In this document: positions 1-11,600 of the stretch, piece by piece
Layout of the letters: the number at the start of each line of letters is the position of its first letter
Position numbering within the stretch: position 1 is the stretch's first letter
Origin: a virus
Taxonomy: Duplodnaviria > Heunggongvirae > Uroviricota > Caudoviricetes
Virus record (IMG/VR): IMGVR_UViG_3300000290_000191
DNA length: 12,662 bases
Direction: 5' to 3' (one strand)
Made by a program: the position numbers and the translations under genes
Notes under the pieces: model-generated
What the model was told of the DNA's origin: nothing
Databases searched by the model: none
Seen by the model: only the letters and a program-made list of their open reading frames with translations

Positions 1-38
1 TTCTTTTCAGAGGGTATTTTAAATAAAAACATTAAGTT

Positions 39-296
39 ATGACGAAGAAGAACGGATACGCCTTAAACCGGAAATTTTTCATAAATAGCGAAAACCCGCG
101 AGGTCGCCGCCCCGTAACCTGTCGGATCGCCGGAAAGGACCCGCAAAATGATAATAATTATCATCTACATGTCACAACGTGCATCTACGCCATCAAACCA
201 CGTCAAATAATCAATTATGACGCAGGTATCGTATTAATTGATCTGCATCAACTTAACGTAAAAACAACTTCAGACAATACAAATCAGCGACACTGA
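39..296 (+). CDS. Doubtful small ORF (85 aa) with no recognisable family; region may instead be regulatory
   Basis: ORF in six-frame track; contains a perfect Fur-box-like palindrome at 149-163 inside it; no convincing RBS; composition not protein-like in places. Confidence 0.2.
   Translation: MTKKNGYALNRKFFINSENPRGRRPVTCRIAGKDPQNDNNYHLHVTTCIYAIKPRQIINYDAGIVLIDLHQLNVKTTSDNTNQRH
149..163. promoter_or_regulatory. Fur-box-like 7-1-7 inverted repeat TGATAAT-A-ATTATCA
   Basis: Sequence at 149-163 reads tgataataattatca, an exact match to the 7-1-7 Fur box consensus TGATAATnATTATCA; about 150 nt upstream of the ORF starting at 312. Confidence 0.4.
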
Positions 297-311
297 ATAC
301 GGGGCAACCTC

Positions 312-506
312 ATGTCAACGAAGAACAGAACCCGCAGAACAACAACCCGCAACATCCGCTTTCCTAACCAAATGATTGAACAAATTAACATCGCTCTTGA
401 GCAAAAAGGGTCTGGGAATTTCTCAGCCTGGGTCATTGAAGCCTGCCGTCGGAGACTAACGTCAGAAAAGAGAGCATATACATCAATCCAAAGTGATGAT
501 GGATGA
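312..506 (+). CDS. Small basic protein (64 aa), possible ribbon-helix-helix DNA-binding fold
   Basis: Translation MSTKNRTRR...RFPNQMIEQINIALEQKGSGNFSAWVIEACRRRL shows beta-strand/helix/loop/helix pattern typical of RHH (Arc/MetJ/CopG-like) proteins; size and position near bor resemble small DLP12-type accessory genes; identity not verifiable without search. Confidence 0.45.
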   Translation: MSTKNRTRRTTTRNIRFPNQMIEQINIALEQKGSGNFSAWVIEACRRRLTSEKRAYTSIQSDDG

Positions 507-2687: not shown

Positions 2688-3250
2688 AAGCTGTGTGACG
2701 AAGTAACCACTCTTAACAGCATAACCAATTTTTTACGTACGTAAACTACTAAATGATATTTGTGAGAATGCCACCGAGTGTTCAAAACACCACCACAAAT
2801 ACATAAGAAAACTTCAACAAATAATCAGTTAATAATTTCCGATGTTATTTTTAGTTTGTTTAAATTAAGCTAAAGAATTATAGAGCACTTATAAATAAGT
2901 GCCATTAATATAAATTAGCTAATAGATTTATTTTTGTTCAGACAAGAGCCATGAATAGGATTAGATAGAAAAGGTTCAGATAAAAATAGAGATCTACTTC
3001 ACAAATTAAATGAGAAACTAAAACTTACATCTTGAAATAATCACATTGATTAGATGAATATTTATCGCGCAGTGACATCATTTTTTAATAATAGTTCAAA
3101 AAAANNNNNNNNNNNNNNNNNNNNNNNNNNNNNNNNNNNNNNNNNNNNNNNNNNNNNNNNNNNNNNNNNNNNNNNNNNNNNNNNNNNNNNNNNNNNNNNN
3201 NNNNNNNNNNNNNNNNNNNNNNNNNNNNNNNNNNNNNNNNATCAGTACTG

Positions 3251-4365
3251 ATGGCGATGTCTGCTCAGGCAGCTGAAATTTATAATAAAGACAGTAACAA
3301 GCTGGATCTATACGGGAAAGTTAATGCCAAGCACTACTTCTCCTCTAATGATGCAGATGATGGTGATACTACTTATGCCCGTCTTGGCTTCAAAGGTGAA
3401 ACCCAAATCAACGATCAACTGACTGGTTTCGGTCAGTGGGAATATGAATTCAAAGGCAACCGTGCTGAATCTCAAGGTTCTTCCAAAGACAAAACCCGTC
3501 TTGCATTTGCAGGCCTGAAATTTGGTGATTACGGCTCCATCGATTACGGCCGTAACTACGGTGTAGCATACGACATCGGTGCGTGGACTGACGTNNNNNN
3601 NNNNNNNNNNNNNNNNNNNNNNNNNNNNNNNNNNNNNNNNNNNNNNNNNNNNNNNNNNNNNNNNNNNNNNNNNNNNNNNNNNNNNNNNNNNNNNNNNNNN
3701 NNNNNNNNNNNNNNNNNNNNNNNNNNNNNCGCACTACTGGTGTTGCAACTTATCGTAACAACGACTTCTTTGGTCTGGTCGATGGCCTGAACTTTGCTGC
3801 TCAGTATCAGGGTAAAAATGACCGCACTGACGTAACTGAAGCCAATGGTGATGGTTTCGGTTTCTCCACTACTTATGAGTATGAAGGATTCGGCGTGGGT
3901 GCAACCTATGCTAAATCAGATCGCACTGACGGTCAGGTCGCCTATGGTAAGAGCAAATTCAATGCCTCCGGCAAAAATGCGGAAGTATGGGCTGCAGGCC
4001 TGAAATATGATGCGAACAATATCTATCTGGCTACCACATATTCTGAAACTCAGAATATGACCGTTTTTGGTAATAACCATATTGCAAACAAAGCACAAAA
4101 CTTTGAAGCAGTAGCACAATATCAGTTTGACTTCGGTCTGCGCCCATCTGTTGCTTACCTTCAGTCAAAAGGTAAAGACCTTGGTGTTCATGGTGACCGA
4201 GACTTAGTCAAGTATGTCGATGTCGGTGCTACTTACTACTTTAATAAAAACATGTCTACTTTTGTTGATTACAAAATCAACTTAATTGACGATAGTAAGT
4301 TTACCAAAACAGCTGGTATTGATACCGACGACATCGTCGCTGTAGGTCTGGTTTATCAGTTCTAA
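3251..4365 (+). CDS. nmpC: OmpC/NmpC/OmpD-family general porin (prophage-encoded); 5' end and signal peptide lie inside N-run 3105-3240, second N-run 3595-3729 inside the barrel
   Basis: Translation ...[32 protein letters not shown]...GFGQWEYEF...[30 protein letters not shown]...[30 protein letters not shown]...[21 protein letters not shown]...VAVGLVYQF with terminal Phe is a classical 16-strand porin; frame before and after the second N-run differs, so N-run length is not exact or the gene is disrupted. Confidence 0.88.
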
Positions 4366-5951: not shown

Positions 5952-6827
5952 TCAATGAACGGTATCGAGCAGCTTTAACAGCTCAGGGAATCGGGATTCG
6001 AAGAAATGCGGCTGCGTCTCGCGCGGATTTGCGGGACTGGTGATGTTCTTGCCGAACATGCAGCCTTTCGCTGTCAGCGACCAGAATTTTTTGATGTTGT
6101 TAATCGCGGTACGGCTGTATCGTTCGCGCTGCTCGACGATCCCCAGCTTCACCATCTGGTGATATGCCTGATTAGCTGTCAGGCGGATACCATACTGCTT
6201 CAGCAGTGCACTCAGTGACAGCGTGGGACGGCTTGAGCCATCAGGCGCGTCAGCAGGAGCATCAATGGCATAGCGCGGTGCCAGATTCGGTAAGCCAACA
6301 GCCTCCTGGAGTTTCTGACAGGCACCAAGCACTGAAGAGTTAGACAGGTTTAACTCCCGGCGCATAAAGTCCAGCAGAATCACGCCAGCCTGCATCTTGT
6401 CAGCAGCCTGCCCGGATAATTTTTCCGATGCGCTGGTTACCATATCGAAAGTACGGATCACCTTCAGATGGAATGACGGGCTGATCCACATTGCATAGGC
6501 ATACACCAGTTCTTTGCAGACATACGTCCCCTGGTTATTTCCGCCACGAATAACGTTAACTGGCTCTATATTGACCGAGTTGCAAATCTGCAACTCGCTT
6601 ATTAAACGTTCAGTTTGCTCANNNNNNNNNNNNNNNNNNNNNNNNNNNNNNNNNNNNNNNNNNNNNNNNNNNNNNNNNNNNNNNNNNNNNNNNNNNNNNN
6701 NNNNNNNNNNNNNNGCAGGCTTATGCTTATCCAGAGAACCGGCAGCCCTGTGCAGATCGTTCAGGCTGTAACGCCCATAAGCATCACGACGAACTTCAAT
6801 ACCATCAATGACCATCAGATTATTCAT
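5952..6827 (-). CDS. KilA-N domain protein (Roi / antirepressor-like DNA-binding protein), interrupted by N-run 6622-6714
   Basis: N-terminus [30 protein letters not shown] ... [28 protein letters not shown] resembles KilA-N domain; C-terminal half resembles phage antirepressor C domains; GAGGAG RBS 9 nt upstream of ATG 6827. Confidence 0.78.
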
Positions 6828-11276: not shown

Positions 11277-11600
11277 TCAATTNNNNNNNNNNNNNNNNNN
11301 NNNNNNNNNNNNNNNNNNNNNNNNNNNNNNNNNNNNNNNNNNNNNNNNNNNNNNNNNNNNNNNNNNNNNNNNNNNNNNNNNNNNTTCAGGAATATTTATA
11401 TTTATGCCATCCAAGTAATAATCAAGAGCATTCTTAATCAAGCCATGTTCTTCGAGATAAATTAAGTTCGAAATTAGGACATTATCATCTCCAAATGCGT
11501 CACGAACAGACTGCAACGCATCATCAGAAATTTCATAAGGATGAGCATCATACAGTATTTGTAACAACTGCCTTTGTGCACTTCTATCAAATTTGTCCAT
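11277..11600 (-). CDS. Small hypothetical protein with winged-helix-like N-terminal region (DUF2513-like pattern), interrupted by N-run 11283-11384
   Basis: N-terminus MDKFDRSAQRQLLQILYDAHPYEISDDALQSVRDAFGDDNVLISNLIYLEEHGLIKNALDYYL has the L-x-x-L-x-E-x-G-L-I pattern of small wHTH proteins; GGTGA RBS 9 nt upstream of ATG 11600; the 3' end depends on the true gap length and may instead continue in the frame of ORF 11015-11233. Confidence 0.45.
   Translation of the reverse strand: MDKFDRSAQRQLLQILYDAHPYEISDDALQSVRDAFGDDNVLISNLIYLEEHGLIKNALDYYLDGININIPEXXXXXXXXXXXXXXXXXXXXXXXXXXXXXXXXXXN

Follow-up and report, generated by a model that had tools for sequence, protein, structure and literature searches.

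The 15-bp palindrome near the left end of the 12,662-nucleotide stretch of viral DNA analysed here (IMG/VR record IMGVR_UViG_3300000290_000191; hereafter, the window) is a genuine and already published Fur site, located 6 bp past the packaging termination signal cosQ in the cos region of a defective lambda-type E. coli prophage. Fur binding to this sequence is well supported, and a comparison of lambda-type cos sites indicates that the element travels with cos and not with the nearest downstream gene. Its most likely function, which we judge to be somewhat better than an even bet, is Fur repression of a weak leftward promoter that reads across cos into the terminase genes.

The cos region of a defective lambda-type prophage

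At its left end the window covers the cos region of a lambda-type prophage of E. coli that is defective and runs in reverse with respect to the lambda map (Table 1). In the match to J02459, window position p equals lambda 48615 - p, and it is this relation that yields the lambda coordinates given in Table 1 for cosQ and for the palindrome. Phage 434 is 99.5% identical over positions 113-330, and its curated cosQ matches window 136-142. A megablast search with positions 1-700 returned 374 phage records, among which many linear ones terminate exactly at window position 113, and 4783 of 5426 complete E. coli genomes contain related sequence, at a median of two places per genome. In an E. coli chromosome that is identical to the window over 1-700, nohD, coding for a Nu1-like small terminase, lies to the left of position 1 and is followed by genes for the large terminase subunit and for head-tail joining and by a truncated portal gene; the truncation of the latter implies that the prophage is defective. 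On the right side, the order comprises ylcI, iss/bor, lysis genes, a porin gene and quuD.

Table 1. Features mapped at the left end of the window (strand "." for elements without orientation).
Feature	Positions	Strand	Description
Phage left arm start: I2 segment and part of cosB	1..100	-	Cut by the window edge; from lambda/DLP12/Qin alignment
cosN 12-nt cohesive end	101..112	-	AGGTCGCCGCCC, reverse complement of GGGCGGCGACCT; the DE3 'cos site' feature aligns
cosQ, packaging termination signal	136..142	-	AGGACCC (lambda top strand GGGTCCT, 48473-48479); phage 434 annotation
Extended conserved block	143..169	.	Spacer GCAAAA 143-148, palindrome, TCTACA 164-169
Promoter-like site	148..175	-	-35 GTGACA 175-170, 16-nt spacer, -10 TATCAT 153-148; by consensus match only
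7-1-7 Fur-box palindrome	149..163	.	TGATAATAATTATCA; lambda bp 48466-48452; same as the K-12 DLP12 nohB/nohD site
Equivalent of the nohA transcription start	~160	-	Start on record at 1634628 (U00096.2), as placed by Grainger et al.; 4 bp from the palindrome centre
Perfect FNR box	238..251	.	TTGATCTGCATCAA, exact match; part of the ylcI-side module, not of the cos module
ylcI (YlcI/YnfO family, DUF3950)	312..506	+	64 aa; Pfam E = 2e-20

The spacer between cosN and ylcI (113-311) is nearly invariant, with 1-9 differences per 217 bp among lambda, 434, DLP12 and Qin. The elements mapped in it are cosQ, the Fur box and the FNR box, and the rest is mostly without assigned function. Elsewhere in the window, six runs of N amount to 704 bases (1150-1198, 2023-2211, 3105-3240, 3595-3729, 6622-6714 and 11283-11384); the first of them masks the 3' part of bor/iss, and lists of open reading frames across these runs are unreliable. 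Among database records with a lambda-type right end, MW057783.1 ('Campylobacter phage CJLB-4') ends in 157 bp that are 97.5% identical to such an end and finish at the cohesive-end cut, which suggests contamination with lambda DNA or a mislabelled record.

A published Fur operator beside cosQ

The first-pass annotation had claimed an exact match to the 7-1-7 Fur box, and the claim is borne out. The sequence TGATAATAATTATCA at 149-163 on the plus strand fits the 7-1-7 pattern TGATAATNATTATCA with zero mismatches and agrees with the 7-1-7 consensus TGATAATnATTATCA at 15/15 positions. Allowing for at most one mismatch, the window contains a single instance of the pattern, where 200 dinucleotide-preserving shuffles predict 0.01; a chance origin is thus unlikely, as had been proposed. 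For the 19-bp consensus GATAATGATAATCATTATC, the closest agreement (16/19) is at 144-162, which is also the top-scoring 19-mer on both strands of the window, and the extended block at 143-169 can be read as weak outer hexamers around a GATAAT-N-ATTATC core (F-F-x-R-R). The open reading frame enclosing the palindrome (39-296) had rightly been called doubtful: it is spurious and not a gene, since it has no Pfam match, is unannotated in RefSeq relatives and spans the cohesive-end cut. Other readings of the palindrome were considered and rejected. An FNR/CRP-type box would read TTGAT-N4-ATCAA, and the palindrome reads TGAT-N7-ATCA; a search for the IHF site WATCAANNNNTTR with at most one mismatch gave no match overlapping 149-163. 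An Rfam search detected no known RNA family at the palindrome.

Alignment with K-12 reveals the same palindrome in the spacer between nohD (formerly nohB) and ylcI of the DLP12 prophage, at the same place between ylcI and cos. Over 95-311 the window and DLP12 show a single difference, at position 143, and they are identical from 144 onward; they differ in prophage copy and host strain, and in the window iss/bor comes directly after ylcI, without ybcV and ybcW. The Qin prophage (nohA) and phage lambda (48452-48466) carry TGATAATGATTATCA at the equivalent place, a positional homologue in which both arms are identical to those of the window and the central base is G instead of A; with eight further differences, both diverge from the window at nine positions over 95-311.

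Both K-12 sites have been described in the context of Fur regulation. The nohB Fur cluster was assigned 25.3 bits, with four overlapping sites over 28 bp, and ranks third among the strong K-12 clusters, the nohA cluster was assigned 22.3 bits, and an oligonucleotide with the nohA site was shifted at 150 nM Fur (Chen et al., 2007; PMC2189734). This gel shift was done on the variant of Qin and lambda, whose central base is different; none was found for the A-centred variant. For the recovery of nohB, the same authors refer to the Fur titration assay used by Stojiljkovic et al. (1994), and for that of nohA to Vassinova and Kozyrev (2000), who selected Sau3A fragments in vivo. When transferred to NC_000913.3, the coordinates of Chen et al. 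lie on the palindrome centre (1634624 to 1636600, and 579824 to approximately 580601), and the information score of the site in the window, 25.3 bits, is the published value for the same sequence, reached through this mapping onto the nohB site. The text of a Fur pan-regulon preprint does not mention the locus. The earlier reading of the palindrome as a genuine Fur box is hence upheld by published work on the same site in DLP12 and on its one-base variant at nohA, in which a gel shift and the titration or selection of Fur in vivo stand beside very high information scores. As a Fur box, therefore, the palindrome is nothing new, the same sequence having been part of the E. coli Fur literature since the 1990s. 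Compared with the classical Fur operators of fhuF, ryhB and entC, its consensus match and information score are comparable or higher, and it likewise forms a cluster of overlapping sites; in contrast with these operators, its neighbours are unrelated to iron, its reported promoter activity is low and its regulation by iron is putative.

The palindrome is inherited with cos

The conservation of the palindrome was assessed on 237 lambda-type cos sites, gathered with patterns that specify only the cosN end and cosQ and are hence blind to the palindrome itself. With the core called as at least 9/12 matches to GATAAT-N-ATTATC at 4-8 bp after cosQ, it is present in 171 of these sites (72%), distributed by class of cosN-cosQ interval as 63/68 for the lambda type, 45/50 for the phi80/N15 type and 63/119 for a third type. 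The core is found beside four types of small terminase (lambda Nu1, a phi80-like variant, phage 21 gp1 and the unrelated N15 type) and beside at least 18 unrelated right flanks. Blastn similarity of phages phi80, N15, 21, HK225, mEp237 and Stx1a extends from cosN through cosQ and stops at window positions 162-169. Anchored on cosQ, the corresponding sequences are TGATAATAATTATCA in phi80, CGATAATAATTATCA in HK225, CGAGAATAATTATCA in 21, CGATAATAGTTATCG in N15 and TGATAATGGTTATCA in Stx1a, each followed by unrelated sequence. Its persistence beside four types of small terminase and many unrelated right flanks shows that the element travels with cos and not with ylcI. A scan of genome contigs with the pattern GCCGCCCCG-N19-23-AGGACCC yielded only chance matches, in high-GC genomes.

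Among the 21 distinct 15-mers recovered, G2/C14 and A5/T11 are invariant; variation is found at position 1, at the centre (A or G) and in the spacer to cosQ. Information per column amounts to 1.77 bits in the arms and to 1.59 bits in the unconstrained cosN-cosQ interval; to the right of the palindrome, positions +1 to +6 are partly conserved, and information drops to about 0.4 bits from 7 nt beyond. In several groups the dyad is extended to GCAAA-TGATAAT-N-ATTATCA-TTTGC, with up to 15/15 symmetric positions (locus L228), and reads as four hexamers directly abutting cosQ. In two mEp237-like IMG/VR loci (L228 and L225), a perfect palindrome of 25-31 bp, CCCGCAAATGATAATGATTATCATTTGCGGG, has the CCC of cosQ as its left end.

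The palindrome lies outside both cosQ (136-142) and cosN (101-112), and is thus not a member of these cos subsites. With respect to lambda cosQ, it is an immediate neighbour that is co-inherited in most lambda-type cos sites, while remaining outside the annotated 7 bp and being naturally absent from many cos sites. A role as a small-terminase binding site (R-box) is unlikely, given that the palindrome is common to phages of different cosB and small-terminase specificities; the R4 annotation of phage 21 overlaps cosQ and not the palindrome.

cos sites without the palindrome

In 66 of the 237 sites (28%) the palindrome is missing, and the same cosN-cosQ interval is found both with and without it. 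Since more than a quarter of the sites do without it, the palindrome is dispensable for cos, and the presence in every lambda-type cos site that a packaging requirement would entail is not observed. In 31 of the palindrome-less loci, a strong intrinsic terminator directed toward cos, with a 9-bp stem and a T-tract running into cosQ, occupies the slot next to cosQ. One IMG/VR locus (L259, 4133-4162) carries the terminator AAGGCCGGAGAAATCCGGC followed by T8 directly before cosQ in the direction of late transcription, and about 30 IMG/VR loci are similar. The cosQ-adjacent slot, then, is occupied by either a Fur operator or a terminator; inspection by eye of other palindrome-less groups revealed neither device. 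A hairpin, cruciform or terminator at the palindrome itself was rejected, the stem being worth only -3.3 kcal/mol as single-stranded DNA. In pair comparisons, 27 arm changes are one-sided and four are complementary on both arms, and this prevalence of one-sided changes points to a protein site and not to a hairpin.

These patterns bear on several alternatives to transcriptional control of the terminase genes. The first is that the Fur array at cosQ acts in DNA packaging as an accessory element or brake. The motor arriving from the right arm would meet the palindrome just before cosQ, where its speed might be reduced, or the approach to cosQ signalled, by bound Fur or by the AT-rich dyad as such; termination would thereby improve, possibly in a manner coupled to iron. 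Such a role would fit the position of the palindrome 4-8 bp from cosQ, its inheritance with the cosN-cosQ segment over four terminase specificity types while the sequence beyond is exchanged, and the annotation of phi80, which includes the palindrome within a 55-bp 'cosQ; aka R4 region'. The functional cos fragments that have been standard in the work of the Feiss laboratory (lambda 48446-182) also include it, and the contribution of the palindrome was therefore not separated in those studies. It is known, moreover, that cosQ mutants are suppressed by slower motors. On the opposite side stand the lambda-type cos sites that dispense with the palindrome, some of them with the same cosN-cosQ interval, the variability of its spacing to cosQ, and a saturation mutagenesis in which Wieczorek and Feiss are said to have found, in 2001, that cosQ comprises only 7 bp. 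No link of Fur to lambda packaging was found in the open literature searched, and a packaging role appears, on balance, unlikely.

A second alternative takes bound Fur as a transcriptional insulator, a roadblock that would halt RNA polymerase arriving from the right arm without antitermination before it crosses cos into the terminase genes, and thus as the functional equivalent of a terminator. The strong terminators of the 31 palindrome-less loci favor this idea, for their location in the same slot hints that both kinds of site need to stop leftward transcription here. The groups with neither device do not conform to it, however, and the nearest right-arm genes in the window, ylcI and iss, point away from cos. 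We regard an insulator as decidedly unlikely.

Lastly, the palindrome might be a chance or neutral passenger, an AT-rich dyad that hitch-hikes with cos and binds Fur without consequence. Its dispensability and the lack of a known phenotype are what such a passenger would display, but the arms are at least as conserved as the cosN-cosQ interval while the adjacent spacer and right flank vary, and the palindrome has been kept in many recombination contexts against the very low chance expectation given above. This explanation is accordingly considered very unlikely.

ylcI and the FNR box

A small gene had been noted about 150 nt downstream of the palindrome, and it is identified as ylcI, starting at 312, 149 nt after the palindrome. 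A single-sequence AlphaFold model of YlcI (pLDDT 59.8) is too poor to judge its fold, and a PDB sequence search with YlcI returned no solved relative. An intact ylcI/ynfO-type reading frame is also present at lambda-type right ends (lambda 48303-48109, complement), where it is unannotated in J02459 and in the DE3 record.

Control of this gene by Fur, which the first-pass annotation had put forward for what it called an RHH-like accessory gene, is not supported by the comparative data. The proposal would have Fur repress rightward ylcI from 150 bp upstream, and it draws on the fact that ylcI is the nearest plus-strand gene and that the 113-311 spacer is almost invariant in lambda, 434, DLP12 and Qin. 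The palindrome nevertheless persists beside cosQ in phi80, N15, 21, HK225, Stx1a-type and many other phages that lack ylcI and have unrelated right flanks. Furthermore, the perfect FNR box at 238-251, the sole exact FNR box in the window, would be far better placed for a ylcI promoter. Operator function for ylcI is hence highly improbable, and it is the alternative most clearly weakened by the comparative data.

FNR ChIP-chip peaks have been published at nohB and nohA/ydfO, with the same FNR sequence given and a positive gel shift, and an FNR ChIP-seq peak has also been published at a 'nohA/nohB' target. If ylcI transcription starts near 285-286, as a -10-like GACAAT at 273-278 may indicate, the FNR box would lie near -41, a class II activating position, and this placement suggests that ylcI, and not nohA, would be the target of FNR.

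Probable leftward transcription across cos

The initial reading had also envisaged a minus-strand transcription unit running off the window. This part stands, insofar as nohD is identified to the left in the identical E. coli locus and the recorded nohA start falls inside the palindrome; the dependence of this unit on iron or Fur is what we infer. The leftward promoter-like site at 148-175 has 10/12 consensus matches, the best in positions 1-900, and its spacer and -10 element lie inside the palindrome. Its -35 element falls in sequence that is unconserved outside the lambda/434/DLP12 group, and no convincing equivalent of the -35 was seen by eye in phi80- and N15-type flanks. Whether the recorded start or the promoter-like site is taken as reference, the geometry is the usual arrangement for Fur repression.

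With combined Fur and sigma-70 models, nohA was picked as a predicted Fur-controlled promoter (Chen et al., 2007; PMC2189734), and it has been classed among the operons that have an FNR ChIP-seq peak and are Fur-repressed (Myers et al., 2013). Against the proposal of a promoter, nohA/B promoter::lacZ fusions revealed a low activity of the cloned promoters (Grainger et al.). The expression study used by Chen et al. (their reference 13, McHugh 2003) is not cited by them for nohA or nohB (Chen et al., 2007; PMC2189734), suggesting that no clear response to iron or Fur was seen in arrays.

Discussion

The palindrome would, in the reading favored here, be a high-affinity operator for host Fur set within the cos-proximal module of lambda-type phages. 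Fe2+-Fur dimers would occupy the GATAAT-N-ATTATC core and probably also the weaker flanking hexamers, forming a cluster that spans about 28 bp directly next to cosQ. The site would overlap the start region of a weak sigma-70 promoter directed leftward over cosQ, cosN and cosB, the targets of which would be the genes for the small and large terminase subunits (nohD here, Nu1-A in lambda). As long as iron is plentiful, Fur would silence this transcription of packaging genes, which is independent of the late operon, and derepression would follow when the cell is starved of iron. Fur binding in vitro and its titration or selection in vivo are published and have been mapped here onto the window sequence, and it is from the arrangement around the palindrome that we infer the promoter, the direction of control and the physiological consequence. 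A consideration that counts against the proposal is that a lysogen has no evident gain from a promoter that drives terminase. In cells with a chromosomal cos, expression of terminase is harmful.

A further alternative is that the operator has no target in cis and functions as a decoy, with the multicopy DNA of the replicating phage titrating Fur and derepressing host iron uptake in lytic growth. It was the very titration or selection of Fur in vivo by multicopy clones that led to the recovery of the nohB and nohA fragments, and the site ranks with the strongest of E. coli. A decoy, however, leaves the fixed position beside cosQ unexplained, and no supporting data were found; Fur, besides, is abundant relative to phage copy number. 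A decoy function is scarcely probable.

The broader puzzle is that one of the highest-scoring Fur operators of E. coli sits 6 bp from a lambda-type packaging termination signal, at a site that is conserved independently of its neighbouring genes and is present in phage lambda itself. As far as checked, the open literature searched contains no discussion of this conserved adjacency to cosQ, which poses a modest question and is not a discovery. It is rather unlikely, in our estimate, that a host iron sensor has been wired into packaging, with the Fur array at cosQ serving as brake, marker or insulator and iron tuning either packaging termination or unscheduled terminase expression. If Fur or iron did affect terminase expression or packaging termination, this would represent a new host input into a classic and intensively studied system, and the wiring of iron into packaging would provide a function for one of the strongest Fur operators of E. 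coli.
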